Assembly: GCA_965203175.1 (NCBI GenBank)
Contig: OZ241867.1
Span: forward strand, 6,176,001 to 6,240,000
DNA from: Candidatus Latescibacterota bacterium
GTDB lineage: Bacteria; Latescibacterota; UBA2968; UBA8231
Reading direction: 5' to 3'
Length of the DNA stretch: 64,000 bases
In this document: piece by piece, positions 50,967 to 64,000 of the stretch
How positions within the stretch are numbered: the first letter of the stretch is position 1
How the letters are laid out: each line of letters begins with the position of its first letter
Notes under the pieces: generated by a model
The model's input: only the letters and a program-made list of their open reading frames with translations
Database searches by the model: none
What the model was told of the DNA's origin: nothing
Position numbers and translations under genes: made by a program

Positions 50967-51043
50967 GGGCGATTAGCTCAGCTGGCTAGAGCGCCTGCTT
51001 GACATGCAGGAGGTCACTAGTTCAAGTCTAGTATCGCCCACCA
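50967..51043 (+). tRNA. tRNA-Val(GAC)
   Basis: Acceptor stem GGGCGAT/ATCGCCC followed by ACCA; anticodon arm CCTGC-TTGACAT-GCAGG; TTCAAGT T-loop. Confidence 0.98.
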
Positions 51044-51049
51044 TCTTCT

Positions 51050-51080
51050 AAGCCCCTGACTTTTCAGGGGCTTTCTTTTT
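51050..51080 (+). terminator. Intrinsic terminator after the tRNA
   Basis: aagcccctga-cttt-tcaggggctt followed by a T-rich tract. Confidence 0.85.
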
Positions 51081-51172
51081 ATCCCCTTGTTTTTGTTTCT
51101 CAGCGCACAGATAATCAGTAGTTTGGCCCGGAGCACTTGAGTCACCTAAGTCTTCAGGACAGAAAAGGAAAG

Positions 51173-52183
51173 ATGACAGGCATTGGAATTATAGGTGCGG
51201 GAGGAATTGCCGAGCACCATTTGAGGGCGATCTCTCGACATCGTCAGGCCAAGGTTCTTTGCCTGGCCGACACTGACTTGAACAGAGCACAGAGCTTGGC
51301 GGACAGATACGGAATCAGTCGGGTTACAGTTGACCCGAATAGGATCCTTCTGAACGCGGAGGTCAATACGGTCATTATTGCTCTGCCCACATTTCTTCAT
51401 TATGAATGGCTGTTGCGATGTGCGAGAGCCGGCAAAGATATCCTCACCGAAAAACCTCTGTGCCGAACTGTGTCGGAAGGCAAACGCGTTCTTCGCACAT
51501 GTACCAAGCACAACGTTCGTCTTGCGGTAGGATACATGAGACGCTTCTCGCCGGCGCGGTTGAAAGTACAGTCGTTGGTGCAAGCCGGAGCGTTGGGCAG
51601 ACCCGTGACTTGGCAGATCTCGTCATTCGGGCCGCGCTCAGACTTCTATCGCGGGCCCGGAAATTGGATGTGGGACAGACGCAAAGGCGGTGGTCTTGTC
51701 ATGGATGGCTCCATTCACGATTTCGACTTCGCGTGCTGGATCCTAGGACAACCGACAAAAATGTTCGCACAGTCCTCCCGGATATCAGATGTCGCGACAG
51801 CGCCGACGCAGGCACACGCTCTTGTCACTTTTGCAGACAGCGATCGTCTTGCGTACAGCGCTGCATGGCAAGAGGGTGATTTCAGCCCGAGTCAGCGCTC
51901 GTCGTGTATCATCGGATCTGAGGGGACCATCACTTTGGATTCTGATTTTGAATTCACTTGGCATTGTGTCGGCAAAAAAGAGCGACATTTCAAGTGGAGT
52001 CCTGACAGACTCCGCCCGTCAGGTATGGGGGCTTCCTGGCTCTTCTACCGACAACTGGACAGTTTTGTGAGGAAGCAGAACGATGTGAGCCTGGCAACTG
52101 GCCAAGAATCTCTCGCCAGCCTGTGGATAGCAGAAAAGATCATTGACGCGGGCCCAGACGGCAGGCTCTGCTACTACAGATGA
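51173..52183 (+). CDS. Gfo/Idh/MocA oxidoreductase
   Basis: GIIGAGGIA, EKP, GGGLVMDGSIHDFD. Confidence 0.93.
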   Translation: MTGIGIIGAGGIAEHHLRAISRHRQAKVLCLADTDLNRAQSLADRYGISRVTVDPNRILLNAEVNTVIIALPTFLHYEWLLRCARAGKDILTEKPLCRTVSEGKRVLRTCTKHNVRLAVGYMRRFSPARLKVQSLVQAGALGRPVTWQISSFGPRSDFYRGPGNWMWDRRKGGGLVMDGSIHDFDFACWILGQPTKMFAQSSRISDVATAPTQAHALVTFADSDRLAYSAAWQEGDFSPSQRSSCIIGSEGTITLDSDFEFTWHCVGKKERHFKWSPDRLRPSGMGASWLFYRQLDSFVRKQNDVSLATGQESLASLWIAEKIIDAGPDGRLCYYR

Positions 52184-53208
52184 CTATGATAACTGAGAGG
52201 AAAGGCCGAACCAATCCACTCTTCCTAATAATGGATCTGAGAGAAAAATCAGAGCGGTGGCGACAGGTTGTCAAAGAAGAAGATATATGGCGACCAGCTA
52301 TTCAGCAGATATGCGATCGCGCCGGTATAGTCTATAGATCGATACGGACGGATTTTCATTCTAACAACGCTGTTTTTCTACTCGATCATCACTACGTCGT
52401 AAAATTGTACGCCCCGGATCAACAAGGCTCTTTCCGCGCTGAAGAAGGGGCTTTACGCATTTTAGCGACGACCCCGGTCCTGCCAATCCCCCCCTTGTTA
52501 GCCGTCGGCGATCTTAACGGTTTGCTCTCTTGTCCTTATATAGTTATGGGTATGGTATCGGGCATGCCTTTAGACGAGCTTCGAGGAAGATTTGGCTCTG
52601 GCGATCTCGTCAATATTGCAACACAGTTAGGCACGGTTATGGCTCGTTTTCACGGTAGTTATTTTTCCGGCAAATCTCAGATTGGACAAGCATATGGGGC
52701 CTGGAATACGCTTTGTGAAAATCGGCGGCACCAATTCATTGAAAATCTTGGACAGACCGTTTCTTTCCCCTCTTGCCTTAAATCAGAACTGCGTGCATTT
52801 GTTTGTTCTACTGAGGTGGATACGTATCTGAATACTCCCCATATTTTGGTGCACGGCGACTTGACGTGTTACCATATTTATGTGGAAGAGCAGGCTGGTC
52901 ATTGGCGAGTTTCGGGAATCATTGATATGGGCAATGCGCTGGCAGCCCCACCTGAATACGATTGGACAGACCTGTGGTTTCAGACACTCGAACGAGATGT
53001 CCAAGCATTGATCGCTTTTCTAACTTCGTACCAATCAGCCCTCAAAATAGACGAAAATTACCGTCGCCGACTGATGGCCTTTTTCCTACACAGTTGGGAA
53101 GCAGCCCCTAAGTTGGCTGCGCTCCTTGAATCAGAGAATGCCCCAGACATTAAGGATATTGGAGCATTGCTGGATTGGCTTTGGCCAAGAGAATTGGAAA
53201 CTTCATGA
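52180..53208 (+). CDS. APH-family (aminoglycoside/choline kinase-like) phosphotransferase
   Basis: YVVKLY, LVHGDL, IIDMG. Confidence 0.88.
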   Translation: MTMITERKGRTNPLFLIMDLREKSERWRQVVKEEDIWRPAIQQICDRAGIVYRSIRTDFHSNNAVFLLDHHYVVKLYAPDQQGSFRAEEGALRILATTPVLPIPPLLAVGDLNGLLSCPYIVMGMVSGMPLDELRGRFGSGDLVNIATQLGTVMARFHGSYFSGKSQIGQAYGAWNTLCENRRHQFIENLGQTVSFPSCLKSELRAFVCSTEVDTYLNTPHILVHGDLTCYHIYVEEQAGHWRVSGIIDMGNALAAPPEYDWTDLWFQTLERDVQALIAFLTSYQSALKIDENYRRRLMAFFLHSWEAAPKLAALLESENAPDIKDIGALLDWLWPRELETS

Positions 53209-53229
53209 ACATGGAACAGTTTTCACTTC

Positions 53230-53305
53230 GGCTAACATCAAACCCACGGCTCCGCTTCGCTCCGCCAAACCCCTTCGGGGTTCGTGGGTTTGAAAAACGT
53301 TAGCC
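53230..53305 (+). repeat. attC-like site 1
   Basis: GGCTAAC...TCAAACCCACG/CGTGGGTTTGA...GTTAGCC. Confidence 0.88.
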
Positions 53306-53323
53306 GAAAATACCCAAGGAAAA

Positions 53324-54109
53324 GTGACTTCATCGATGAATCAAATTCTCTCTCAAGAGGACATTGAACGCTTCCATCTAAACGGGTACGTCCGCCTCGA
53401 ATCGGCTTTTGATCGCACACTTACGCATCGCGTGATGACGTACATATGGGAAATACTTGAGCAGAGATACGGCTTCGATCGCGAAGATCCCTCAACCTGG
53501 AATCGCCCGACAAAAGGACTCAGCAAGATACTGCAAGCGAACCGAGACCTTTGGAATATTGGCGACCAGAAGATCACCTATGCGATCACCCAGCTCCTAG
53601 GTCCTAGCTGGAAATCACCCCCCCACTGGGGCACCTTGCTCCACACGATGCCTGAATCCCCCGATATGTGGAATATTCCGACGGGATGGCACTGGGACTC
53701 AGATCCGTTGGAAATCATAAATGGGAAAGAAGGTCTGTTCATCTTTATTTTTATGTCCCACGTCTTACCGCAGGGGGGTGGAACGCTTATTCTGGAGGGA
53801 GCCCATAAGCTCCTCTTGCGATATCATTGCCGGAGTGTAGAGGCTAAGGGGGGCCACAGTACATTCTTCAAAGCGCACCCATGGCTGGTGGATCTACGGA
53901 ACAACACAGGACCGATGAACGAACGAGTTGCTCGTCTGATGGAGCAGAATGCAGAGATTGAGAATATAAAGGTTAGGGTTGTTGAACTTACGGGAGAGCC
54001 AGGCGATGCCGTGCTCTGCCATCCGCTGATCGTACACGCTCGGTCTCAGAACGCTTCAAAAGTGCCTAGGTTCATGTTGGCCAAGCGAATATGGCGCGAA
54101 CAAGCCTAG
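53324..54109 (+). CDS. PhyH family dioxygenase (cassette gene)
   Basis: FHLNGYV, WHWD, GEPGDAVLCHP..HARS..RF. Confidence 0.9.
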   Translation: MTSSMNQILSQEDIERFHLNGYVRLESAFDRTLTHRVMTYIWEILEQRYGFDREDPSTWNRPTKGLSKILQANRDLWNIGDQKITYAITQLLGPSWKSPPHWGTLLHTMPESPDMWNIPTGWHWDSDPLEIINGKEGLFIFIFMSHVLPQGGGTLILEGAHKLLLRYHCRSVEAKGGHSTFFKAHPWLVDLRNNTGPMNERVARLMEQNAEIENIKVRVVELTGEPGDAVLCHPLIVHARSQNASKVPRFMLAKRIWREQA

Positions 54110-54142
54110 GCTGGCAGCCTCGACTTGTATGATGATATCTTC

Positions 54143-54229
54143 GACTAACAGCAGCACTTGTGGCTCGGGCCTGACGCCCCTCGACCTAACTTGCTTGCAG
54201 CAAGTTCACAAGTGCACCAACCGTTACGC
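54143..54229 (+). repeat. attC-like site 2
   Basis: GACTAAC...GCACTTGTG/CACAAGTGC...GTTACGC. Confidence 0.85.
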
Positions 54230-54246
54230 GAAAAATGTCATTCTTC

Positions 54247-54336
54247 GCGTAACAAGCAGTTACCACTGCGCCGCATACGCGGCTTGGCCCTGTGGGCAAC
54301 CTCCTTCGCAGGTTCAGTAACTGTAAAACGTTATCT
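54247..54336 (+). repeat. attC-like site 3
   Basis: GCGTAAC...CAGTTAC/GTAACTG...GTTATCT. Confidence 0.85.
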
Positions 54337-54376
54337 GCCATGCGTTTTCGCCTGATTGGTCGAAGGGGTTACAGCT

Positions 54377-55195
54377 ATGGAAACTTCCAAAATCGCCTTT
54401 GTGAGAGACCGGAATGGACTCTTTGATATCTTTACTATGAATGAGGACGGAACAGATCAGACCAACATCACGCGCACCCCGGATTACGAGAAAGACCACG
54501 TAAACTGGTCTCCCGATGGCACGCGTATCGCCTACTGCGACCGACGCCATGGCAAGGGCGAAATTTACGTAATCAACGCCGATGGAAGCGAACCAAGGCG
54601 ACTGACCCACAATTCGGCCCCTGACCTTCGTTCTCACTGGTCGCCCGACGGCCAGACGATCATTTTTTGCACGGATCGTCACGACAACGTCGAGATCTAT
54701 GCCATGAACAGCGACGGTTCTAACCAGAGGAATTTGACCAATCATCCGGCGTATGAGTTGGAATCAACTTTTTCCCCAGATGGCTCTAAGATTGCCTTCA
54801 CGACCGACCGCGATGGTAAGACACAAATTTATGTGATGAAACCGGATGGAAGCGAGCAAAAACGGTTGCACGTTTCTCAGGGCAACGATGAAGATCCTGC
54901 CTGGTCACCGGACGGCAAGTGGATCGCCTTTAAGTCGGACCGCGATGGAAAAAGATCGCAACTCTACGTCATGAGAGCGGATGGGTCGGATCCTAGACGC
55001 CTCACCAACGTTGAGGGCGGCGGCGCTATGGAACCCTCATGGTCACCAGATGGCTCGGCGATCAGCTTCACGGGCGACTGGGAAGGCCGCCAGCAAATCT
55101 ACCGGATAGATATCGACGGAAAGAATTTGACTAATCTCTCTAATAGCTCGACGAAGGATTTTGCTGGTGATTGGGGACCAACGATCGAGATTTGA
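54377..55195 (+). CDS. TolB-like PD40 beta-propeller protein
   Basis: Repeated WSPDG..IAF..DRDG..IYVM..DGS. Confidence 0.92.
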   Translation: METSKIAFVRDRNGLFDIFTMNEDGTDQTNITRTPDYEKDHVNWSPDGTRIAYCDRRHGKGEIYVINADGSEPRRLTHNSAPDLRSHWSPDGQTIIFCTDRHDNVEIYAMNSDGSNQRNLTNHPAYELESTFSPDGSKIAFTTDRDGKTQIYVMKPDGSEQKRLHVSQGNDEDPAWSPDGKWIAFKSDRDGKRSQLYVMRADGSDPRRLTNVEGGGAMEPSWSPDGSAISFTGDWEGRQQIYRIDIDGKNLTNLSNSSTKDFAGDWGPTIEI

Positions 55196-55205
55196 GCTTC
55201 GGCAA

Positions 55206-55430
55206 ATGACAGAATCGTTTGTTGATATTGGAAATCTCCGTCTGTGGACAATCGTGTATGGCAGACAGGATATCAGGCCGAGTTGGCCAGTCGAGCAACT
55301 TGCTCAACTGTTGCCGAACGCGCATTTGGAGTTTCTTGAGAATGCCCATCACCAAATTTGGCTTGGGCATGAAGAATTGCTCCAAGGTTTCTTGAGGGAA
55401 TTTGTAAAGAAATTTGCCCACAGCACATAA
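55206..55430 (+). pseudogene. Internally deleted alpha/beta hydrolase (head fused to tail)
   Basis: MTESFVDIGNLRLWTIVYG joined to RQDIRPSWPVEQLAQLLPNA..AHH; no GxSxG. Confidence 0.6.
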
Positions 55431-55507
55431 CACGTCCGTGCCCGGCTTCGGCGCTGGCGCGCCTTTGCCCAACCGCTACGCGGTTCGGCACGGCGGAAAC
55501 GTTGCAC
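55425..55507 (+). repeat. attC-like site 4
   Basis: ACATAAC...CCGTGCC/GGCACGG...GTTGCAC. Confidence 0.8.
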
Positions 55508-55539
55508 GCCATCCGGATGAAGATGGAAAGGACGAGAAC

Positions 55540-56022
55540 GTGGCGAAATCCTGTCCTGAATGCTTAAGTGATGTTCCTGAGAGCGCATTTGTATGTCACG
55601 CTTGCGGCCGAAGGATCGTGGGCAAGGAGTGCCCCGAGTGTTGTGAAGTTTCGAAAGAGACTGCAAAACGGTGCGCCTATTGCGGCCACAACTTTGAGCG
55701 CAAGGAGAAGATTGCCAAAATTGAACCATTTAGTGCAAAGGCCTCATTGCTGGCCACGCTCTTCCTCCGGATGCGTTTGATCCCACAGGAGATTTTGCTA
55801 ACTCCAGAGAAGATCATCATCCAAACGTGGGGATTCTTTTGGCTTAGCAGGTCGGACGAAGACATCCCTTGGGAGAAAATCGCCGGCTATCACTACCACG
55901 CAGGATGGTTCTGGGACAGTCTTGAAATCCAGACACGCGGCCAGACAGCCAATAGAATACGATGCCTTCAGAAACCAGACGGTCTAAGAATCAAGGAAAT
56001 ACTCGAGCAAATGAAAGAGTAA
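55540..56022 (+). CDS. Double zinc-ribbon protein with a PH-like C-terminal domain
   Basis: Four CxxC pairs; GTG start after AAAGGA. Confidence 0.75.
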   Translation: MAKSCPECLSDVPESAFVCHACGRRIVGKECPECCEVSKETAKRCAYCGHNFERKEKIAKIEPFSAKASLLATLFLRMRLIPQEILLTPEKIIIQTWGFFWLSRSDEDIPWEKIAGYHYHAGWFWDSLEIQTRGQTANRIRCLQKPDGLRIKEILEQMKE

Positions 56023-56058
56023 TTAGCGTTATTAATACAGCCAACAGTGGAGGTCTAA

Positions 56059-56544
56059 ATGCCTGAGGAAAAAACCGAAGTCACCGCTACCGCCAACATA
56101 AGCTTACGCGAAGTTAATGCCGACACTGTAGGGGCAGTCTGCCGCCTGAGCAACACCCTCACGGAGCCCAAGAAGAACTTTGTTGCCAACAATGCCTTCT
56201 CCATCGCCCAAGCATACTTCGAGCCCAAGGCCTGGTTTCGCGCCATATACGCTGATGAAGAGCCAGTTGGATTTGTGATGCTCGTCGACGATGCCGAGAA
56301 ATCTGAGTATTTCCTCTGGCGCTTCATGGTCGCCGAGCCTTATCACGGCCTGGGTTTCGGCCGCCGCGCCATCGAGCTGTTGGTGACATACGTCAAAACC
56401 CGTCCCCAGGCCAAGGAACTGCTTGTAAGTTGTGGGCTCGGCGAAGGGACTCCTGTCGGTTTCTACGAAAAATGCGGTTTTGTCCGTAATGGCAAGACCT
56501 ATGGTGAGGAAATCGGCCTGACGATGCGACTAGTCACTAGCTAG
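56059..56544 (+). CDS. GNAT acetyltransferase (spermidine acetyltransferase-like)
   Basis: FVANNAFSIAQA, LWRFMV..GLGFG, FYEKCGF; GGAGG RBS. Confidence 0.9.
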   Translation: MPEEKTEVTATANISLREVNADTVGAVCRLSNTLTEPKKNFVANNAFSIAQAYFEPKAWFRAIYADEEPVGFVMLVDDAEKSEYFLWRFMVAEPYHGLGFGRRAIELLVTYVKTRPQAKELLVSCGLGEGTPVGFYEKCGFVRNGKTYGEEIGLTMRLVTS

Positions 56545-56559
56545 CTTTGGAGGCATATT

Positions 56560-57180
56560 ATAGACTCAGAAGTCACCCTCGTCAGTGTCCACATTCCCAA
56601 AACGGGAGGGATGACGCTGTTGAGTATTTTACAGCAAGTGTATGTTGGTCACCTACAACTCGCCTACGAGGATGAGCGTGATACGATAGTCGAAAAACCA
56701 CTCTGCTATCACGGACATGCTGTGCTGGATAAGTTTGCCAACAATTTGGCCGCATTGCCCAATGCGAAATGGATGACGTTTCTGCGCGACCCCCTTCGAT
56801 CTGCGGTCTCGCTTTACCACTACGGTGTTAAACATGGGACCATTCGCGAAATGGGGCTGGACCAGTGGCTCACAGGAACGGAGATGTTCTGCTGGCCCGA
56901 TCCTCCCGCATACAACCACAACCGCTTCTCGAAATGGATCGGGCGTGCGAGAACCTCATGGGATCAGTTTGACCTCATCGGACTCACAGAGTACTTCGAC
57001 GAATCGATCCAACTCGCTTCGGAAGTGCTTGGATGGCCTGATGTCGAATACACATCGCAGAACGTGGGGACGTACGGCGATCCCAATTTGAATGAATCGA
57101 CTATCAATGTTTTTCGTCGGTTGAATTCAGATGACTACATAGTGTATGATAAAGCGATAAGGCGATTGCAGGGCCAATAA
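56560..57180 (+). CDS. Sulfotransferase family protein with a probable non-ATG (ATA/ATT) start
   Basis: PAPS-binding HIPKTGG lies in frame upstream of the first ATG (56611); also TFLRDP and GLTEYFDES. Confidence 0.8.
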   Translation: MDSEVTLVSVHIPKTGGMTLLSILQQVYVGHLQLAYEDERDTIVEKPLCYHGHAVLDKFANNLAALPNAKWMTFLRDPLRSAVSLYHYGVKHGTIREMGLDQWLTGTEMFCWPDPPAYNHNRFSKWIGRARTSWDQFDLIGLTEYFDESIQLASEVLGWPDVEYTSQNVGTYGDPNLNESTINVFRRLNSDDYIVYDKAIRRLQGQ

Positions 57181-57244
57181 GATGCTGCACTGGACGAGGA
57201 ATCCGCTGCGCTTCTATCCCCGCCGGTGAGTTTGAACGGTAGAT
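57172..57244 (+). repeat. Degenerate attC-like site 5
   Basis: GGCCAAT-aagatgctGCACTGGAC..ccgctgcgct..GCCGGTGAG..GGTAGAT; both core triplets mutated. Confidence 0.7.
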
Positions 57245-57278
57245 CCTACTTCATCAAGAGAGTTGAGTAGCCTTTGCC

Positions 57279-58328
57279 ATGAACGAAGTCCTGAGGGCCC
57301 TGGATCGCGAACAGCTCAAGCGTGCTTTCAGCAATCACTTCGGATGCTCGATCGCAGAGATCAAAGTCCGAGAGTCGAGGCCGTTGCCCCCAAATCCTGG
57401 ATTGTCTGGGGACAAACTGATCTGCGAAGTCTCGATGCGGTCAGGAGGAAGAACCTTGGCTCCAGTGGAGTGCTGTATCAAGCGGATGGTAACGCCCGAC
57501 GACCGCGAAGCCCATCTGTATCGATCGCTGCACGACTTGCAGTTCCCGTTGCCCGAGTTCTATGGGCACTATCTGGATGAGAAGGGCCGGGAGGTGCTGA
57601 TCCTGGAGTACATCCCGCGTGTAGGGTACTCCTTTCGATCAGATGAGGAGACAACGGAGTGGCTTTCGCTCATGGCTCGATTCAACGCCATGCCACTGAG
57701 TGCCTGCGATGTTGATTCACTAAGGCAGCAGGATTGGGGAGTTTGGCTCATCGATGGGAAGGTTGAGACCGAGTTTGAAGAAGTGATATGGTGCGCGGCT
57801 GAATCCTTGATCGGCGACGAGTTGGCCGCGTTCTGCCAAGCTCAGGCGTCCAAGATCCGATCTCTTAGTGGCTTCGCCAGAAGACTTCACGCCGTGGTAA
57901 TGGACATGCCTAAGGCGCTTTGCAACGAGGAGCTTCATCCGGGATGGCGATCAGACGGAACACTTGTGGCATTCGATCTGCACAGTACAAGACCGAGTCC
58001 TCGGTTCATGGACATCTCGAACTACATCGGCGCACCCGAGTCGGGATCATGGCTAGGGGCCCTGTCACCTCGGATGAAGTGGGCCCGCGTCTACGGCGAA
58101 GCGTTGGCAGTTGCGGGCGGCCCATCCGTCGACGCGGCGACCATTCTACACGAGTCACGTCTTGTTTGGATGGCATTCGCATTCCAACTCGCATGGTGCC
58201 TTCAGGTCGCTATCGACGGCAAGATCAACTGGTCGGAGGATCTAGAGAAGAACAAGCTGGGGGCGCGCAGAGGGATCCTGATGCGGCTTGCCTATTTAAC
58301 AGAGGCTCAAGAATGGGCCCTGGTGTGA
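57279..58328 (+). CDS. Divergent APH/kinase-like protein
   Basis: CIKR, REAHLY, PLPEFYG, LILEYI; atypical CNEELH and AFD catalytic-like motifs. Confidence 0.65.
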   Translation: MNEVLRALDREQLKRAFSNHFGCSIAEIKVRESRPLPPNPGLSGDKLICEVSMRSGGRTLAPVECCIKRMVTPDDREAHLYRSLHDLQFPLPEFYGHYLDEKGREVLILEYIPRVGYSFRSDEETTEWLSLMARFNAMPLSACDVDSLRQQDWGVWLIDGKVETEFEEVIWCAAESLIGDELAAFCQAQASKIRSLSGFARRLHAVVMDMPKALCNEELHPGWRSDGTLVAFDLHSTRPSPRFMDISNYIGAPESGSWLGALSPRMKWARVYGEALAVAGGPSVDAATILHESRLVWMAFAFQLAWCLQVAIDGKINWSEDLEKNKLGARRGILMRLAYLTEAQEWALV

Positions 58329-58372
58329 AGAGCCTCAGTGGAACATCTTCTGAGATCCAACGGAGGCGAACT

Positions 58373-58495
58373 GTATAACATGTGTTGGAGCAACGCTAAA
58401 GCTCAGTGGCTCTGAGTCGTTAGCTGTCCACCTTTCCCGTTCGGAGATTCACAGTCGGGTGTGCATCGTGTCAGCGGCTCAACACTACGTTAATG
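58373..58495 (+). repeat. attC-like site 6
   Basis: GTATAAC..GTGTTG(G)AGC/GCTCAACAC..GTTAATG with an extrahelical base. Confidence 0.78.
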
Positions 58496-58505
58496 GATGT
58501 GAATC

Positions 58506-58650
58506 CTCTAACGCCCCATTTACGCTGCGGGGCATTCGCCCCTTGGCCCTAACGGGCACATCCTCTCTCTGTCACGGCGCTTGCCTTCGGCAACCTCCTC
58601 GCCAGCCCTATGCGGGACGAGAGGCGTCATAAATGGTTGAAACGTTAGCC
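58506..58650 (+). repeat. attC-like site 7 (long type)
   Basis: CTCTAAC..CCATTTA/TAAATGG..GTTAGCC. Confidence 0.82.
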
Positions 58651-58669
58651 GACACTCAATGATTTGCTT

Positions 58670-59257
58670 ATGACTCAAGATCTTGTCCAGCGTGATCGAA
58701 TAATTCGCCAAGAAGCGGATGAACTCCTTGGACCAAAGGGATTGAGAAGCCTACTCGAAAAATACGGGACTCCTCACGTTTCAGGCAGTTACGCTCTGCA
58801 CCTCATGACCTGGAGAGATCTAGATATTTATCTGGAACAGCAACATCTATCAGAGGAATCGTTCTTTCGTTTGGGAGGTAGGATCGCCTCCTCCCTGGCT
58901 CCAGTAAGAATGAGCTTCCGAAATGAACGTATTAACCAGACACCGAGTCTACCGTTAGGTCTTTATTGGGGTATCTACCTTGGCGACGAGAGGAAAGGTG
59001 CCTGGAAGATAGATATTTGGGCAATTGATTCCCAAGATTGCGAGAAGCAACTTCAGTTTACCGAACGGATCGCAGCGGATCTGACTCCTTTACTGCGTTG
59101 TAAGATTCTCTCCATCAAAGATGCCTGTTGGCAGGATCCTGGCTATCGAAAGACCTATACAAGTCAGGACATTTACCGTGCTGTGATTGAGGAGGGCATT
59201 GAGAACATTGATAGCTTTAAGCAACACATGAAGGACAAGGGAGTGAGCGTCGGCTAA
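58670..59257 (+). CDS. Nucleotidyltransferase-fold hypothetical protein (cassette gene)
   Basis: GSYALHLMTWRDLDI, WKIDIW; stop codon lies within the next attC R''. Confidence 0.7.
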   Translation: MTQDLVQRDRIIRQEADELLGPKGLRSLLEKYGTPHVSGSYALHLMTWRDLDIYLEQQHLSEESFFRLGGRIASSLAPVRMSFRNERINQTPSLPLGLYWGIYLGDERKGAWKIDIWAIDSQDCEKQLQFTERIAADLTPLLRCKILSIKDACWQDPGYRKTYTSQDIYRAVIEEGIENIDSFKQHMKDKGVSVG

Positions 59258-59342
59258 TACAGCAATTCACGCTGCGCGCCGTGAGGCGCTGGGCCTTCGG
59301 CAAGCTGCATTCGCGGCTTCGTGAATTGTGGGCCCGTTAGGC
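59252..59342 (+). repeat. attC-like site 8
   Basis: GGCTAAT..CAATTCACG/CGTGAATTG..GTTAGGC. Confidence 0.85.
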
Positions 59343-59378
59343 GAAATCCTATCACTCTTTTAAAGAGTGGATTGAACC

Positions 59379-59816
59379 ATGTTCACAATCGGAGTTTTTG
59401 GGATCATTACTGACGAGAACGACCGCGTCCTGCTTTGCCACCGGCGTGACTTCGATCTGTGGAATCTGCCCGGTGGCCGAGTTGAAGCGGGCGAGAGCCC
59501 GTGGTCTGCACTGGTGCGAGAAATAGAGGAAGAAACGTGTTTGAGAGTAGTACCCGCCCACCTCAGCGGAGTATACAGCAAGCCAGATAAGAATGAAATC
59601 GTACTCTCTTTCTCCTGCCTGGTTACCGGTGGCAGTATCCACCTCACCGATGAGGCCGACCAGATCGAGTACTTTGAGTTAGAGCGTATCCCGAGCAACA
59701 CCTCCCCAAAACAGATCGAACGCATCAAGGACTATTTCGCAGACAGGGGAAAGACATATTACAGAGTGCAAACCGGTCCTTCTTCAGTCGATTTTATCAA
59801 CGAAGGACAGATGTGA
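59379..59816 (+). CDS. NUDIX hydrolase
   Basis: LPGGRVEAGESPWSALVREIEEET. Confidence 0.93.
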   Translation: MFTIGVFGIITDENDRVLLCHRRDFDLWNLPGGRVEAGESPWSALVREIEEETCLRVVPAHLSGVYSKPDKNEIVLSFSCLVTGGSIHLTDEADQIEYFELERIPSNTSPKQIERIKDYFADRGKTYYRVQTGPSSVDFINEGQM

Positions 59817-59830
59817 GAGATAGGTACATC

Positions 59831-59905
59831 GCCTAATAGCACGGTATTGCGCTGCGGCACCTTTGGCAACCGCTTCGCGATTCGCAAACCGGCAAAACGT
59901 CATGC
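59831..59905 (+). repeat. attC-like site 9 (degenerate cores)
   Basis: GCCTAAT..CGGT(A)TTGCG/CGCAAACCG..GTCATGC. Confidence 0.78.
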
Positions 59906-59909
59906 GAAA

Positions 59910-60965
59910 GTGAGTTCGATTTTGTTTAGAACGGATCTCTTCCAAGCGCACTTGGAAAACTGGGAACTCATTCTACAGGAGCGAACCGTTGAAGCCATCG
60001 AACGGATCGCATCTGTTCCTGGCGTTGCGGGTGTGATTCTAGGGGGTAGCGTTGGGCGAGGAATGGCGTGGCCTATATCAGATATAGACCTCATCTACAC
60101 TACTACCAAGGGGGCGGACAACAGTCTTGCAAAAAGAGTGGACGAGCTTGCGTTGTCCATCACAAGGGAGTGGGCGCGAGACACGTGGCCGACGTCTGTT
60201 GACGCAGGGCGACTCCATTTTACCGCTGACGAGGCAGACGACTTGCTCAAAGGCAAGCGTCACTTAGATGAGCTGATGGCCAATGAGAGGACTTTCCATG
60301 CGACCGACAAGAGCCACCTCGGTCGATCAGTTCACGCGTCTGAGGATTGCGATACTCCTGCATTTGTCGTGCTACTTTCCGATGGTCGATTTGACCCATC
60401 GGTTGTCCAGGCACGCCAAATCGAGCGAGTCAGACGTGTAACCAGTCTCGCTCAGCGAGTTCAGTCTCATCTGGAGGCCGGTAGTCTGATTGAGGCAGGG
60501 ATCTCTATACAGGAACTCGCGCGTGTGATAATCCCATATCTGATGGAAAGGTGGGGGCATGGAGATCGGTCCTTTGGAAGGGCTTTCACTCGTTTTTGCG
60601 TTCTAGCGCACGAGCACCAGGAAGAAGGCATTGCGAATCGCCTCATTCGACTGTTCTCTCTTACGGCGGATGAGGTAGAAGCAAGATACGCCAAGGCTCC
60701 CGCTAATGTTGTGGAGCGACACATCACATCGTATCCATCCCGCCTGGCCGTGGGCGAAAAGATCACGGAGCTCGATGACAAACGCGATGTCCTGTATGCC
60801 TACACGTGGTATGCAGTTCGCACTGGTGAAACTGGTTCGTGGCTCCTCAATGAGGATCTACACAAGTCTCAACTCAAGTTGTCACTGGATCAAACAGCAT
60901 CTATATGGACCGAGGTGGTCTCGAAGGAGCCGGATTGCATATCTAGCGAACTCACCCTCGCATAA
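59910..60965 (+). CDS. Nucleotidyltransferase domain protein (KNTase-like N-terminus)
   Basis: ILGGSVGRG..SDIDL; GTG start placed after the attC. Confidence 0.75.
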   Translation: MSSILFRTDLFQAHLENWELILQERTVEAIERIASVPGVAGVILGGSVGRGMAWPISDIDLIYTTTKGADNSLAKRVDELALSITREWARDTWPTSVDAGRLHFTADEADDLLKGKRHLDELMANERTFHATDKSHLGRSVHASEDCDTPAFVVLLSDGRFDPSVVQARQIERVRRVTSLAQRVQSHLEAGSLIEAGISIQELARVIIPYLMERWGHGDRSFGRAFTRFCVLAHEHQEEGIANRLIRLFSLTADEVEARYAKAPANVVERHITSYPSRLAVGEKITELDDKRDVLYAYTWYAVRTGETGSWLLNEDLHKSQLKLSLDQTASIWTEVVSKEPDCISSELTLA

Positions 60966-61044
60966 AACAAGCATCTACGGCTCAGGCCATCCGGCCTCCG
61001 CCCAACCTAGCTTCGCCAGGTTCGTGAGTGCCGGACCGTTACAC
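60960..61044 (+). repeat. attC-like site 10
   Basis: GCATAAA..GTTACAC; body resembles site 2 (ggctc.ggcc, cc.aac.t, ca.gttc). Confidence 0.72.
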
Positions 61045-61062
61045 GCAATTTAAGGAGGCATT

Positions 61063-63507
61063 ATGTTCAGGAACTATATCACTGTTGCTGTTCGGAATAT
61101 ATTCAGACATAAAGTCTATTCAGTGATCAACATTCTCGGACTGACAGTCGGTCTCACTGCGGTCGTACTTTTGATCGCCTACGTCGAGAACGAAACAGGC
61201 TACGACCGTTTTCACTCCAATCGGGAACAACTGTATCGCGTCGTGCGCAGGACTGTAGCGAACGAGCAAGAGATTGTCAGCACTAGCGTCTCAGGAGCAG
61301 TTCGAAACGCTGCTCTGGAGACCATCCCTCAAGTCAAGGCTGCTGCACGAGTTTGGGATGGGAGAGGAGCAGGTCCCCGTTGGATGCGTTATGGTGATAC
61401 CTCTCTGTCAGTGGATTTTTGGCTTGTTGAAGATAACTTCCTGGAGGTCTTTGATTTCCCTCTTCAACAGGGAGAAATATCAACACTCTTTGAAAAGCCA
61501 TACTCTGTGGCTATCACCGAAAAAGTAGCGCGAAAATTCTTCAAGGACGAAGACCCCATTGGGAAGATTGTCACCTTGGAGCATGTGTGGTTTGCTGGCA
61601 ATTACACCGTCACAGGCATTCTTGCCGATCCACCAGTACAATCCAGTCTGCAATTTGAAGTCATCTCATCGACTGTCCCAACATCTGGTACTCCACATTA
61701 TGCTTGGGAAAAGTGGAATAGAAGTTTCTCTTGGATTCCAGTCCAAACCTGGCTATTGCTTGAGCCCAACGCGAAGGTCGAATTTGCGGAACAAAACCTC
61801 AATGAACTTATGGTCAAACACCTGGGATCTAACGTTGCTGCCACCGATTCATATCAGTTACAAAAATTAACGCGAATTCATTTGTATCATCGCATCGACT
61901 TTGGATCGCGGATAGAAGATGGTGACGCTTCCGGTGGAACCGACATTCGCAGACTGCAAGTGGCAATAGGCATCGTGTTGCTGTTAATGCTGATCGCTTC
62001 AGTGAACTTCACGAATCTTGCTACTGCCCGTTCTTTGACACGCGCCGGAGAAGCAGGAGTAAGAAAAGTAGTAGGGGCGAGTAAACAAGACCTCATCATA
62101 CAATACCTAACCGAGTCCATCGTACTGGCATTCGCATCTCTTGTTGTTTCGATTGGCGTTGCGCAGTTGGTGTTCCCAATATTTGCCGATATGCTTGAAA
62201 CGAGCCTTCAGTTCACCCCTGGCGTCCTATTCTCTCTTATGCCCTTACTATGCCTCATTGCGCTCTTTTTCGGTGTGCTCGCTGGCCTGTATCCGGCCCT
62301 TTTTTTGTCCTATCTCTCGCCAGTCGAGGCTATTCAACCTGGTTACGTTCCTGGCTCAACCAAAGCATCGCTCCGAATGGGCCTCCTGACTTTCCAGTTT
62401 GCCTCGTCAATCCTGCTCGTTATCGCGGCAAGTGCGATGTCAACACAGATGGATTTCATTCGAAACAAGGAACTCGGTTTTCAGAAAGAACACGTCATTC
62501 TATTGCCCCTATTTGCCGATGGCAGGGGAGCGGATGTAGAAGGGAATGTTCCATTCACGGACCGTTATGAAACAGTAAAGCGAGCCTTCTTAAGAAATCC
62601 CAACATTCTGGCGGCCAGTGCAATACACACGAAAACTGGACTTGGAGGTCCAGCAGAGCTTATCCAACCAGCAGGGTATCCTGATGGCGTGCGAATGCGC
62701 CTTCTGGGAGTAGATGAAGACTTTCTGGGAACTTACGGGATTCATCTCGTAGAGGGCAGAAATTTCGATACGGGCAGAGCATCTGACAGAACTGCGGCCT
62801 TTATTCTCAATGAAACGGCAGTACGCCAATTGGGATGGGATAAGCCTATTGGCATGCAGGTCACATGGGGTTCTCGCAAAGGTCAAGTCATTGGAGTCGT
62901 CCGAGATTTCCACAATCGAAGCCTACATGAAGAGATTGGCCCTGTGGTCTTAGCTATCCGCCAGGATGTTTTCAACACCCTGGCACTTCGACTGGCGAAC
63001 GGAGATTTGATAGCTACAATCAATGACCTTGAGCGGATTTGGCATAAGTTTCTGCCCACCCGGCCTTTTCGCTACTCGTTCCTTGATGAGAGCTTGAGTA
63101 GCATGTACCTCGAAACCCAACGCTTCACAGATATTTGTACGCTGTTTGCTCGTTTGGCCACCCTTGTAGCCTGCTTGGGCATGTTTGGCCTCATCTCGTA
63201 TATCATAGAGAGAAGACGAAAGGAGGTTGCCATTCGCAAAGTCCTTGGAGCCTCGGACAGAAGCGTCGTGCAGATGCTCATAGGTGCTCAGATCCGTCCC
63301 ATTCTGTATGGAAATCTGATTGCGTTGCCTGGTGCTCTGTATTTCATTGATCGATGGATATCTGATTTTGTGTATCGCGTGGACATAGAATGGACGATTT
63401 ATGCAAGTGGGAGCATGGCCATTCTTGTTCTGGCAATTGCAACAGTACTTTTTCAGATCATCCGAGCGACTCGTAAAAATCCTGTTGAAGCCCTCAGGCA
63501 CGAATGA
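61063..63507 (+). CDS. MacB/FtsX-family ABC transporter permease (duplicated form)
   Basis: AAGGAGG RBS; NFTNLATAR..EAGVRKVVGA, RRKEVAIRKVLGA, NPVEALRHE. Confidence 0.93.
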   Translation: MFRNYITVAVRNIFRHKVYSVINILGLTVGLTAVVLLIAYVENETGYDRFHSNREQLYRVVRRTVANEQEIVSTSVSGAVRNAALETIPQVKAAARVWDGRGAGPRWMRYGDTSLSVDFWLVEDNFLEVFDFPLQQGEISTLFEKPYSVAITEKVARKFFKDEDPIGKIVTLEHVWFAGNYTVTGILADPPVQSSLQFEVISSTVPTSGTPHYAWEKWNRSFSWIPVQTWLLLEPNAKVEFAEQNLNELMVKHLGSNVAATDSYQLQKLTRIHLYHRIDFGSRIEDGDASGGTDIRRLQVAIGIVLLLMLIASVNFTNLATARSLTRAGEAGVRKVVGASKQDLIIQYLTESIVLAFASLVVSIGVAQLVFPIFADMLETSLQFTPGVLFSLMPLLCLIALFFGVLAGLYPALFLSYLSPVEAIQPGYVPGSTKASLRMGLLTFQFASSILLVIAASAMSTQMDFIRNKELGFQKEHVILLPLFADGRGADVEGNVPFTDRYETVKRAFLRNPNILAASAIHTKTGLGGPAELIQPAGYPDGVRMRLLGVDEDFLGTYGIHLVEGRNFDTGRASDRTAAFILNETAVRQLGWDKPIGMQVTWGSRKGQVIGVVRDFHNRSLHEEIGPVVLAIRQDVFNTLALRLANGDLIATINDLERIWHKFLPTRPFRYSFLDESLSSMYLETQRFTDICTLFARLATLVACLGMFGLISYIIERRRKEVAIRKVLGASDRSVVQMLIGAQIRPILYGNLIALPGALYFIDRWISDFVYRVDIEWTIYASGSMAILVLAIATVLFQIIRATRKNPVEALRHE

Positions 63508-63550
63508 CAGGTCTCACATCAAGAAAGTTACAGTATATCAGAGTGTAGAT

Positions 63551-64000
63551 TTGGCGATCAGCAAGCAAGCATATATAGAAGCCTCCAAGGCAAAGCCGAC
63601 CTTTACTGCTGAGCAGGGAGCAGTGGCTTTTGCTAGACAGGGGCTAGGCTCGGTTATCGAATGGACTGAACTTGCAGCAAATCCAACCAATTGTGTCTAC
63701 AAGGCAGTGTGTTGCGACGGCAGCTATATAATCAAGATCAAGTATCGAAAAGCCTTCTCGCTAGCGGTCGATTTCAATATTACCGCATTGTTACGCGATA
63801 CAACCACTCTGCCCGTCCCGGAGATCAGTGTATTATGCGAGGACCCCGATGTGTTCGGATATCCTTATCTGATTTCTAGTCTGCTCCCCGGTACTCAAGG
63901 ACGAGACTTTTTCGAGAGGCCCAGTACTAGCGATGATAGGCGGTGTCGCCTGCTCAAAGAATTTGGCTCAGCGGTCGCTGCCATCAATGAACAGAGCGTA
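63551..64000 (+). CDS. APH-family phosphotransferase, 5' part (runs off right edge)
   Basis: Hand translation: NCVYKA..YIIKI..LPVPEI..FGYPYLISSLLPG; start position approximate. Confidence 0.75.
   Translation, partial: MAISKQAYIEASKAKPTFTAEQGAVAFARQGLGSVIEWTELAANPTNCVYKAVCCDGSYIIKIKYRKAFSLAVDFNITALLRDTTTLPVPEISVLCEDPDVFGYPYLISSLLPGTQGRDFFERPSTSDDRRCRLLKEFGSAVAAINEQSV

Follow-up and report, generated by a model that had tools for sequence, protein, structure and literature searches.

Sedentary chromosomal integrons combine a vertically inherited platform with a homogeneous, lineage-specific attC family and an integrase gene that is often decayed, and their long arrays hold duplicated cassettes and genes mostly of unknown function. 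Vibrio and Xanthomonas are named as carriers. Clusters of attC sites without an integron integrase were termed CALINs in the work describing IntegronFinder and are thought to stem from integrase loss (Cury et al. 2016). The same paper cites a Treponema group of inverted-integrase integrons and holds that a recombinase close to attC does not count as an integron integrase if it lacks the IntI domain. Furthermore, an "integron-like" subgroup of simple tyrosine recombinases has been described (Smyshlyaev et al. 2021), and insertion-less IntI-like proteins are thus already on record as a class.

We analysed a 64,000-nucleotide stretch of a Latescibacterota genome (the window) in which a row of genes follows tRNA-Val. 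The row resembles a CALIN in its co-oriented cassettes, its attC-type sites, and the lack of a nearby IntI. However, this locus is fixed beside tRNA-Val throughout a genus, and the lost recombinase, which is not an IntI, can be identified from sister species. With sedentary integrons it shares a vertically inherited chromosomal platform, a homogeneous lineage attC family, long arrays with duplicated cassettes and mostly unknown genes, and frequent integrase gene decay, but its recombinase has no IntI additional domain. We consider it rather probable that the locus belongs, in decayed form, to an integron-like lineage whose noncanonical integrase is of putative activity.

A mobile gene cassette array behind tRNA-Val

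The genes that follow tRNA-Val do form an array of mobile cassettes. We searched for sites with a model, R2, trained on 44 sites from several genomes, the window's own among them. The window holds eight robust attC-type sites of 77 to 147 bp (42 to 69 bits with R2) and one doubtful site, c5, all on the plus strand between 53229 and 61045. Site c5 (58372-58426, 55 bp) scored 23 bits solely with model R1, whose training set held c5, and was not recovered when the window was searched with R2. It is therefore doubtful, and the "about 10" sites of an earlier note on this DNA come down to eight or nine. An R2 control with filters off, covering 84 kb (the window and the 20 kb behind it), yielded 12 matches at E ≤ 1: 10 strong ones, all within the array and on the plus strand, and two weak ones (E of 0.39 and 0.72). 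The array continues about 11 kb past the window, with two further strong sites at genome positions 6240829-6240935 and 6250733-6250821. The end given earlier, 64000, is that of the window and not of the array. The whole 6.58-Mb genome gave 18 site matches, 10 of them in the tRNA-Val interval.

In the 44-site alignment, 80.6% of cells were paired, versus 24 to 38% with the partner slid, and compensatory changes occurred at all 10 L''/L' pairs; because the alignment was fitted to the model, this measure is biased in favour of structure. The outer R''/R' pairs were broken in 16 to 26 of the 44 sites, with the TAAC/GTTA core retained. The spacers are constant and asymmetric, with 6 nt on the right in 42 of 44 sites and 1 to 3 nt on the left, which distinguishes these sites from those of sedentary integrons. 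Additionally, the bottom strand gave the more stable fold in 39 of the 44 sites. In seven of eight comparisons, R'' was no less complementary to the preceding R' than to its own, and in six it was strictly more so.

No recombinase domain was found in the open reading frames (ORFs) from 48271 to the end of the window or in the following 20 kb, where an adjacent intI would have made this an ordinary integron according to the earlier note. The genome-wide IntI search suggested there returned nothing above the TIGR02249 cut-off and no intact copy; all that resembles IntI is an N-terminal fragment of 93 aa near 1.294 Mb. Given no adjacent recombinase and no intact one in the 6.58-Mb genome, the array is formally a CALIN. 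The claim of an integron-type cassette array lacking an integrase in cis is upheld, and a distant integrase feeding it in trans finds no candidate in this genome.

All features of the array lie on the plus strand, with genes assigned by Pfam and sites scored with R2. Cassette 1 (51122-53299, 2178 bp) contains two genes. The first (51137 or 51174 to 52183) encodes a Gfo/Idh/MocA oxidoreductase and the second (52180-53208) an APH-family kinase; attC c1 (53229-53306, 68.7 bits; R'' CGGCTAAC, R' GTTAGCCG) follows. At locus L026, the kinase gene adjoins the platform without its cassette-1 partner, and identity between the window and L026 starts at the GTTAGCC of c1. Cassette 2 (53300-54223) carries a PhyH-like dioxygenase gene (53324-54109; PhyH, 24.6 bits) and recurs in L026, L027, and L035 at 95 to 97% identity in differing contexts. 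Identity with L026 stops past the GTTA in the R' of its site, c2 (54142-54230, 67.7 bits). Cassette 3 (54224-54330, 107 bp) is ORF-less and essentially only attC c3 (54246-54337, 60.2 bits), whose R'' is complementary at 7/7 positions to the R' of c2 and at 4/7 to its own. Cassette 4 (54331-55501) holds a PD40 beta-propeller gene (54356-55195; PD40, 168 bits) and a small ORF that ends, at 55430, inside the R'' of c4 (55424-55508, 62.9 bits); this R'' matches the preceding R' at 6/7 positions and its own at 3/7. The cassette is also present in L024, L026, L027, and L043, there after another cassette.

A composite block (55502-58644), whose only internal site is the doubtful c5, comprises four genes, encoding a zinc-ribbon/bPH protein (55414-56022), a GNAT acetyltransferase (56059-56544), and two products without a family (56611-57180 and 57279-58328), with the 147-bp attC c6 at 58505-58651 (49.8 bits). 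The next cassette (58645-59336) has a 197-aa gene without a Pfam match (58664-59257) and attC c7 (59251-59343, 56.4 bits), in which the stop TAA lies within R''; a stop codon is so placed at three sites, c4, c7, and c9. This cassette comes first in L043, with the platform joint G|TTAGCCGACACTCA, and in L025 the tRNA is followed directly by a truncated attC and then by this cassette. A NUDIX hydrolase gene (59379-59816; NUDIX, 72 bits) occupies the cassette at 59337-59899, whose attC c8 (59830-59906, 42.3 bits; R' GTCATGCG) has an R'' matching the preceding R' at 7/7 positions and its own at 5/7. In the cassette at 59900-61038, the gene (372 aa; 59847 or 59903 to 60965) has a weak, below-cut-off match to NTP_transf_2 (nucleotidyltransferase, 18.6 bits), and the cassette ends with attC c9 (60959-61045, 53.5 bits), in whose fold the R''-L'' spacer is unusually long. 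The last cassette (61039-64000) continues past the window. One of its genes encodes a MacB/FtsX-type permease (61063-63507), and another, starting at about 63.5 kb, is of the APH family. The cassette with the permease gene comes first in L032, at the platform joint G|TTACACG, and its own attC there has an R'' (CGTGTAAC) that is the exact complement of the cassette's 5' end.

Cassette boundaries fall at the G|TT of the R' box both in the L026 alignment and at platform-to-cassette joints in six loci. Across 22 related loci, R1 gave 31 matches in nine loci, all on the plus strand and 3' of the tRNA. Comparing cassette order among relatives, as had been advised, we found cassettes common to several species but in shuffled order. 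Sponge-metagenome contigs link cassettes in still other orders, some with joints at or inside attC sites (e.g., 54227>59904 and 54317>55428). Comparison between species shows that site-specific recombination at G|TT has added, removed, and rearranged cassettes. The interval from tRNA-Val to an M42 peptidase gene is a hot spot and is almost empty in 6 of 17 loci. The common cassettes are 92.8 to 98.0% identical, versus 89.9 to 93.0% for the left flank, and were the higher in nine of nine loci. The array also has an internal cassette duplication (97.5%).

The tRNA-Val end in this genome and in sister species

The tRNA-Val gene (anticodon GAC; 50967-51043, plus strand; ARAGORN, and 69 bits with the Rfam tRNA model) is conserved and anchors the variable region on its left side; the same tRNA is present in 18 of 22 related loci. 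On the same strand follows a terminator-like hairpin with a T-run (51050-51083, hairpin 51050-51073; a 10-pair stem with six G-C pairs), also kept in sister loci. Alignment of these loci defines a conserved plus-strand leader (51084-51108, 3' end ...TTTCTCAGCGCAC); counting the window, 11 of 18 loci have the motif. The species diverge past the leader, and it probably marks the left edge of deletions that took out the recombinase gene. Beyond it lies an attI-like remnant, AATCAGTAG|TT (51113-51123, plus strand), with the putative crossover between 51121 and 51122; its pattern has one match in the window, with 0.36 expected by chance per 64 kb.

The earlier note correctly placed a tRNA and terminator at the expected integrase position but missed what sister species have there, recombinase fragments and an attI-like platform. 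Between tRNA-Val and the arrays of these species, a mid fragment of a tyrosine recombinase gene remains in 7 of 18 loci and a C-terminal piece in two (L027 and L032). In translation, the two match residues 192-233 and 272-315 of the recombinase that is intact in genome G126, at 86% and 84% identity (E values, 2e-26 and 6e-24). The platform end ...AATACAGTAG|TTA (...CAGTAG|TTA) is conserved in L027, L028, L032, L035, and L043 and near-identical in G126 (...AATACATGTAG|TTA), and the cassette behind it differs from locus to locus, save one common to L035 and G126. A recombinase other than canonical IntI once stood at the expected integrase position.

We propose that the ancestor of the genus had a chromosomal integron-like platform just 3' of tRNA-Val. 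The tRNA and its terminator would have been followed by a plus-strand tyrosine recombinase gene, about 230 bp of conserved platform with the attI-like end ...GGGAATACAGTAG|TTA, and cassettes each terminated by an attC-type hairpin site. A deletion in this genome would then have taken the recombinase gene and almost the entire platform, sparing only AATCAGTAG|TT and leaving an orphan array that spans about 26.6 kb (from about 51.1 to 77.7 kb if the window's numbering is continued), with no cognate recombinase in the genome. Two details count against this proposal: the 11-nt remnant aligns to the sister platform with one indel, and the 5' end of cassette 1 (TTTGGCC) is a poor fit to the R'' of c1. 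Transcription past the terminator is still as puzzling as the earlier note found it; consensus promoters in the region numbered 9, versus 10.7 ± 3.2 in shuffles, i.e., no excess, with none in the stretch from the terminator to the first gene.

The type-2 recombinase family in Latescibacterota

The intact recombinases, which we call type-2, have IntI4 as their best solved relative (VchIntIA/IntI4, PDB 2a3v, 158 bits; XerA, 127; XerD, 92). They share the SAM_4 and Phage_integrase domains and the R, H-x-x-R, H, and Y positions with IntI, as well as a ...SPLD C-terminal tail with a Latescibacterota IntI. However, around the IntI-specific insertion, type-2 is about 42 residues shorter (18, versus 60 in IntI4), and the insertions of bona fide IntI were missing in 12 of 12 aligned members. 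The family scored 222 bits against TIGR02249 (cut-off, 265), and the G017 protein scored 229.6 bits (cut-off, 220) against NCBIfam NF040815 (XerA_Arch), which is named "site-specific tyrosine recombinase/integron integrase." In size and in the absence of the insertion, type-2 resembles XerA and XerC/D, but its genes adjoin cassette arrays, whereas this genome's own housekeeping XerD gene adjoins uvrC and its type-2 gene is missing. A quick tree with a poor outgroup separated the type-2 clade (SH-aLRT of 85) from 13 IntI (100). The recombinase is a member of an IntI-like/Xer-like family without the IntI-specific insertion. Its likeness to the integron-like subgroup of Smyshlyaev et al. (2021) is one of description, and the account of that subgroup used here gives no link to attC arrays or attI.

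Type-2 recombinases occur in 30 of 168 Latescibacterota genomes, and 14 of 29 loci have an attC match within ±1.5 kb of the gene. All 14 loci examined over ±10 kb have arrays (61 sites in total), on one side of the gene in 13 and on both sides in G077, and none has a tRNA in that range. The largest arrays adjoining a type-2 gene are those of G131 (about 45 kb), G122 (about 30 kb), and G126 (about 21 kb). Unlike sedentary integrons, these loci have two geometries. Five are divergent, the classical integron arrangement, with about 290 bp conserved 5' of the gene up to an attI-like end; conservation ends at ...CAG|TTA in four and at ...CAGATA in the fifth. In 8 of 14, the gene is co-oriented upstream of the cassettes, an orientation also seen at the tRNA-Val platform and in the inverted-integrase integrons of the Treponema group, which, however, have a canonical IntI (Cury et al. 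2016). From adjacency alone, we infer that type-2 may be the enzyme servicing this attC family in Latescibacterota. Points against this role are the sites on both sides of the gene in G077 and the very large wider recombinase family (7571 of 8000 scored candidates at E ≤ 1e-30); among distant members at 80 metagenome loci, on mostly short contigs, the lineage-specific R2 gave strong matches at two and any match at five.

Alternative explanations

The array might instead be an ordinary CALIN of the classical system, its cassettes made and moved by a canonical IntI since lost or acting in trans or in other cells. The insertion-less recombinases would then be passengers or mobile elements homing to integron att sites, as IS1111-attC elements and group IIC-attC introns do. 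The 93-aa IntI fragment in this genome and the bona fide IntI of 17 of the 168 genomes in the phylum favour this explanation. So do multicopy type-2 members (six copies in G078 and seven matches in G079), and in G079 an IntI gene or fragment precedes two of the copies by about 400 bp; copy number and placement would fit a mobile element targeting integron platforms. Array-adjacent copies are often broken, by one TAA in G131, three TGA in G122, and frame breaks in G128, G030, and G040, and the verdict of Cury et al. (2016) on attC-adjacent recombinases points the same way. However, no R2-type site turned up at the six IntI loci examined (G026, G015, G122, G123, G157, and G163). Direct scans of the G026 (L054) and G015 (L014) loci gave zero R2 matches at E < 0.1, whole-genome scans placed the site nearest to IntI at a distance of 84 kb in G122 and 65 kb in G123, and the IntI-only genomes G157 and G163 had no R2 match genome-wide. 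No attC lies close to the IntI fragment of this genome (G000) either. Moreover, in both geometries a conserved noncoding platform is contiguous with the type-2 gene and stops precisely at the G|TT joint, and the arrays are one-sided in 13 of 14 loci. We regard an ordinary CALIN as unlikely and a decayed lineage with its own noncanonical integrase as the better account.

Insertion of the region into tRNA-Val as one genomic island by a phage- or ICE-type integrase, with the array as cargo and the sister remnants as the island's integrase, would explain the adjoining tRNA, the recombinase remnants immediately behind it, and a G+C content below that of the genome (53.8% versus 59.0%). The earlier note likewise envisaged block capture at a tRNA hot spot and a 3' duplicate of the tRNA to the right. 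Yet the last 12 to 30 nt of the tRNA are not duplicated anywhere in the genome, 14-mers of its 3' half do not recur in the next 40 kb, and the content varies cassette by cassette at G|TT rather than blockwise. The remnants, in addition, are of the same family as the array-side genes at the 14 loci without tRNAs within ±10 kb. We therefore hold an island to be very improbable. Hardly any weight is left for REP-like repeats or terminators that separate genes by chance, although the sites are indeed intergenic, G+C-rich, imperfect palindromes 3' of genes. This reading is already contradicted by interspecies synteny that breaks at the GTT of R', by R'' pairing with the preceding R' rather than its own, by the ORF-less unit at 54224-54330, and by the concentration of 10 of the 18 genome matches in a single interval.

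attC-type sites and the cassettes that they bound

Nine candidate sites (c1 to c9, positions 53229 to 61045 of the window) were first picked from intergenic DNA, and a covariance model, R1, was then built on them. R1 found more sites outside the window, both at other places in this genome and in related genomes; 44 sites drawn from several genomes then went into a second covariance model, R2. With its filters off, R2 detected eight of the nine window sites at 42 to 69 bits, these eight robust sites lying inside 7.8 kb, and another two over the following 20 kb, every one of them on the plus strand; the other R2 matches in those 84 kb were two, both weak (E of 0.39 and 0.72). The ninth candidate, c5 (58372-58426), was dropped as doubtful because R2 had no match there. 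Genome-wide, R2 gave at least 18 matches at E <= 0.1 when 150 of 5434 first-look candidates were scored, and 10 of these were in this interval. A screen for AAC...GTT proved too strict, with c1 as the sole site picked up, and Rfam, which holds no attC family, reported the tRNA as its sole match.

The sites share the consensus C-R-N-N-T-A-A-C ... C-G-T-T-A-N-N-N-G and an asymmetric loop. In the 44-site alignment, which was itself fitted to the model, 80.6% of cells were paired, versus 24 to 38% with slid partners; compensatory changes occurred at all 10 of the L''/L' pairs, the outer R''/R' pairs were broken in 16 to 26 of the 44 sites, and TAAC/GTTA was nearly invariant. The right spacer was 6 nt long in 42 of 44 sites, compared with 1 to 3 nt for the left spacer, and the bottom strand gave the more stable fold in 39 of 44. 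An integron attC site is an imperfect palindrome with an R''-L''...L'-R' layout, a RYYYAAC/GTTRRRY-type core, and a crossover at G|TT. As judged with the covariance models built in this analysis, the window sites have these features.

Next, we compared the sites with their neighbors. The complementarity of R'' to the R' of the previous site was at least as good as that to its own R' in seven of eight comparisons (strictly better in six), the pattern predicted for cassettes that were each once circularized at G|TT. When the cassette for the PhyH-like protein was aligned with its counterpart in the related locus L026, identity began at GTTAGCC of the upstream R' and stopped after GTTA of the downstream R'. 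Furthermore, the permease cassette of another related locus, L032, has an attC whose R'', CGTGTAAC, is the exact complement of that cassette's own 5' end, G|TTACACG. By these alignments, the sites are the cassette boundaries, with a predicted crossover at G|TT.

The genome is a single contig of 6.58 Mb, and the stretch is present in sequencing runs labelled sponge metagenome. From 51137 to the end of the window, every long ORF is on the plus strand. Family searches of these ORFs returned mutually unrelated families: a Gfo/Idh/MocA oxidoreductase, APH-family kinases, the PhyH-like protein, a PD40 propeller, a zinc-ribbon/bPH protein, a GNAT acetyltransferase, a NUDIX hydrolase, and a MacB/FtsX permease, along with several further plus-strand genes that matched no family. 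For one ORF (56611-57180), the true start is probably earlier than the first ATG: the frame is open back to 56545 (56545-56610), with GGAGG at 56549-56553, and the sequence before that ATG may encode a sulfotransferase-like nucleotide-binding motif. A Sulfotransfer_2 gene lies further along the array (L007:12778-13665, L007 being a locus of the same genome), as do three ankyrin-repeat genes in a row past the window (L007:8810-12781, genome 6245810-6249781).

The array also contains a segmental duplication, in which 55190-56021 of the window and 6240595-6241411 of the genome are 97.5% identical over 832 bp. The duplicated segment covers a small ORF, the site c4, and the zinc-ribbon gene, and the L'-R' part of the attC is gone from the second copy. 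At 63508-63540 the permease gene passes directly into the next cassette with no attC between them; the attC of the permease cassette seems to have been deleted in the window, and the L032 copy of the cassette keeps its own 119-bp attC. Elsewhere in the genome, four attC-family sites that form another small cluster (3546740-3564984, plus strand) and single sites at 3139215, 741513, 2004347, and 1431132 are orphan arrays or single cassettes.

The tRNA-Val locus and the probable remnants of a platform

The flank formed by PBP5, the oxidoreductase, and tRNA-Val was found in 22 close loci, with the tRNA present in 18 of them. R1 detected 31 sites in 9 of the 22, all on the plus strand and all downstream of the tRNA. 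In blastn comparisons of 17 loci with the extended interval, the same cassettes recurred in a different order and with different neighbors, and in six of the 17 (L033, L034, L036, L037, L039, and L040) the M42 peptidase gene of the right flank followed about 65 to 1500 bp after the tRNA. Cassettes held in common were 92.8 to 98.0% alike, versus 89.9 to 93.0% for the left flank, and were the higher of the two in nine of nine loci. This points to cassette exchange between species after they diverged, and more recently than the divergence of the flanking core genes. Contigs from three DNA runs, which may derive from other species, joined the cassettes differently, with some joints at or inside an attC (e.g., 54227>59904 and 54317>55428). 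In one sponge metatranscriptome, RNA-library contigs covered parts of several cassette genes at 95 to 99% likeness; such contigs show neither transcript nor strand, and the library may hold DNA. In one species (L044), about 4.4 kb of extra DNA lies between the oxidoreductase gene and tRNA-Val.

The earlier note had reported no recombinase in cis, and this holds: ORF family searches found no recombinase gene on the left side of the tRNA, elsewhere in the window, or over the following 20 kb. Against the whole genome, the integron-integrase profile TIGR02249 gave no match above its cut-off. Its best match, below the cut-off, was the XerD beside uvrC, and the second was a 93-amino-acid N-terminal fragment of a canonical IntI (genome 1293742-1294023, L012:7742-8023, minus strand) covering positions 1 to 64 of the profile at 78.5 bits. 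This fragment provides no functional integrase, and no attC was found near it in the 16-kb locus searched. It adjoins an AbiJ-type gene that is split by an IS3-family element.

One reading put forward in the same note was that the array had been captured as a block at the tRNA. The array does lie behind a tRNA-Val(GAC) (50967-51043, plus strand) and a terminator-like hairpin (51050-51073, plus strand). In a tRNA-integrated island, the 3' end of the tRNA recurs as a direct repeat at the far border (attL/attR), and the island has an integrase. The last 12 to 30 nt of this tRNA occur once in the whole genome, with no second copy, and no 14-mer of its 3' half is repeated in the next 40 kb; with the 3' duplicate (attR) not found, block capture at the tRNA is not supported. 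A Pc promoter reading into the array, as integrons have, was likewise not recovered in our sigma-70-type scan, which found no consensus promoter between the terminator and the first gene and, in the region, matches at chance level (9 versus 10.7 +- 3.2).

When the tRNA-proximal junctions of related loci were aligned, a conserved leader ended in ...TCAGCGCAC, and behind it 7 of 18 loci had a short stretch of one gene, with a longer piece in L032 and L038. Translated, the L032 piece is 86% identical to residues 192 to 233 of a recombinase that is intact in genome G126 (E of 2e-26). What L027 retains is the 3' part of this gene, whose translation matches residues 272 to 315 of the G126 protein at 84% identity (E of 6e-24); the recombinase stop-codon motif is also kept in L032. 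After these remnants, five sister loci (L027, L028, L032, L035, and L043) share a conserved platform of about 230 bp, which includes a perfect hairpin with GTCTAAC/GTTAGAC arms and terminates in ...CGTCGGGAATACAGTAG|TTA. Beyond this end, each of the five has its own cassette, and two of the cassettes so joined are interior cassettes of the window array. The platform with cassette-specific divergence after G|TTA was found in these five loci and in G126. In the window, only AATCAGTAG|TT is left at the putative attI position. The window reads ...TCAGCGCAC-AGATAATCAGTAG|TTTGGCC at 51100-51128, so that the leader is fused to the last letters of the platform, and this 11-mer, a putative remnant of attI, is unique in the window. 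We read these junctions as a probable deletion, in which the window genome lost the recombinase gene together with the platform.

A tyrosine recombinase family beside related arrays

The recombinase of these junctions belongs to a family that we call type-2, which is IntI-like and has the domains SAM_4 (PF13495) and Phage_integrase (PF00589). IntI is recognized by PF00589 together with a specific region near patch III (the intI_Cterm profile); as judged by alignment to IntI4, TIGR02249, and NF011946, type-2 proteins do not have that region. The protein of genome G017 scored 229.6 bits against NF040815 (XerA_Arch), over the cut-off of 220, and 222 bits against TIGR02249, under the cut-off of 265; the NF011946 score of a type-2 protein was 159 versus a cut-off of 435. 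Against solved structures, the G127 protein matched IntI4 (2a3v) at 158 bits, XerA at 127, and XerD at 92. In the alignment to IntI4, 18 type-2 residues stand opposite 60 in IntI4, and all 12 aligned type-2 members were without three insertions of a Latescibacterota IntI, while an ...SPLD tail is common to both. A quick tree set 13 IntI sequences (support of 100) apart from the type-2 family (support of 85); with an outgroup of three Xer rows, two of them on very long branches, the tree bears on the separation of these clades and not on sister relations. The wider family is huge, and its array-associated members were scattered among the others in the tree.

We then examined how the family is placed relative to attC-type sites. 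Of 168 genomes of the phylum, 30 had type-2 genes (E <= 1e-45); at that threshold, the window genome had none. An R2 site lay within 1.5 kb on either side of the gene at 14 of 29 loci; L075, left out of this count for its size, is the same place as L056 and has five R1 matches. Within 10 kb on either side, sites were present at 14 of 14 loci, 61 in total, and were one-sided in 13. They lay downstream of the gene and co-oriented with it at eight loci, upstream and divergent at five, which is the classical integron geometry, and on both sides at one (G077). At the divergent loci, a stretch of about 290 bp ahead of the start codon is conserved, and the conservation ends in ...CAG|TTA at four of five loci; the fifth (G128) reads ...CAGATA. 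The largest arrays abut the type-2 gene (about 45 kb in G131, 30 kb in G122, and 21 kb in G126). Several array-adjacent type-2 genes are broken, and some members are multi-copy. In G079, one multi-copy member of 314 amino acids follows a canonical IntI gene at a distance of about 400 bp, and likewise an IntI fragment (G079:C1:2493564-2495712 and 2158606-2160397). By its position, it may be an element that inserts at or homes to integron platforms.

Canonical IntI was present in 17 of the 168 genomes, and none of the six IntI loci examined had R2 sites. Direct scans of the IntI loci of G026 and G015 gave no R2 match at E < 0.1. In whole-genome scans, 84 kb separated IntI from the nearest site in G122 and 65 kb in G123, and the genomes of G157 and G163, which have IntI and no type-2 gene, contained no R2 site.

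Classification and relation to known integrons

A complete integron has an adjacent intI that encodes a tyrosine recombinase with the IntI-specific additional domain. The window array has no such neighbor, and the recombinase family at the related arrays is without the insertion. In Cury et al. 2016 and the IntegronFinder 2.0 paper, a CALIN is defined as at least two clustered attC sites with no IntI nearby. The earlier note's observation of an integron-type cassette array without an integrase is confirmed by the eight robust R2 sites, and its label of CALIN is formally right: the sites, called by models built here, are clustered, with no IntI nearby and none intact in the genome.

We consider it somewhat probable, from the remnants and the related loci, that the array is what remains, as an orphan, of an integron-like platform whose recombinase was noncanonical and IntI-related. 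Our confidence in the cassette array and its decay history is much higher than in this whole chain. Against the chain stand the broken array-adjacent type-2 genes, the multi-copy members, the size of the wider family, and the rarity of R2 sites beside its distant metagenome members. More tentatively, and with the odds a little against it, Latescibacterota and perhaps other little-studied phyla could hold a second integron lineage, with an IntI-like integrase lacking the additional domain and with its own attI and attC subtype; a fixed asymmetric spacer may mark that subtype. If this is true, many CALINs of uncultured lineages would be complete or recently decayed integrons, and type-2 could represent the state of the integron integrase prior to gain of the additional domain (or following its loss).

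Both in integron biology and in its detection tools, an integron is defined by an integrase with the specific insertion, and other arrays are counted as orphans. Here, an orphan array appears traceable to a platform whose recombinase is without that insertion, and the same family occurs next to arrays as long as about 45 kb, with a recognizable attI-like joint, in many genomes of one phylum. Cury et al. 2016 describe 50 non-IntI recombinases near attC among 18,808, judged not to be integron integrases; in their intermediate group, two attC sites were the most that any of these cases had. Ghaly et al. 2022 restate the additional domain as defining and necessary, and Smyshlyaev et al. 2021 have the insertion as not fully conserved in an "integron-like" subgroup. 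Our full-text literature search returned no report tying an insertion-less recombinase to attC arrays and nothing on integrons in Latescibacterota. If the enzyme is active on these sites, cassette recombination would not universally require the additional domain, part of the CALIN class would be misfiled, and the step from Xer-like recombinase to integron integrase would be testable with natural intermediates. Symbionts found in sponge metagenomes also gain a gene-shuffling system, with cassettes that include kinases, sulfotransferases, ankyrin proteins, and permeases.

Among metagenome loci of distant type-2 members, R2 gave seven matches in 5 of 80 loci, strong in two; R2 is lineage-specific and most of the contigs are short, and this survey neither extends the association past the phylum nor limits it. 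Two metagenome contigs with a G+C content of about 44 to 48% (L127 and L130) carry distant type-2 members (40% identity) with attC-family sites upstream and divergent, a hint that the system may occur in more than one phylum.
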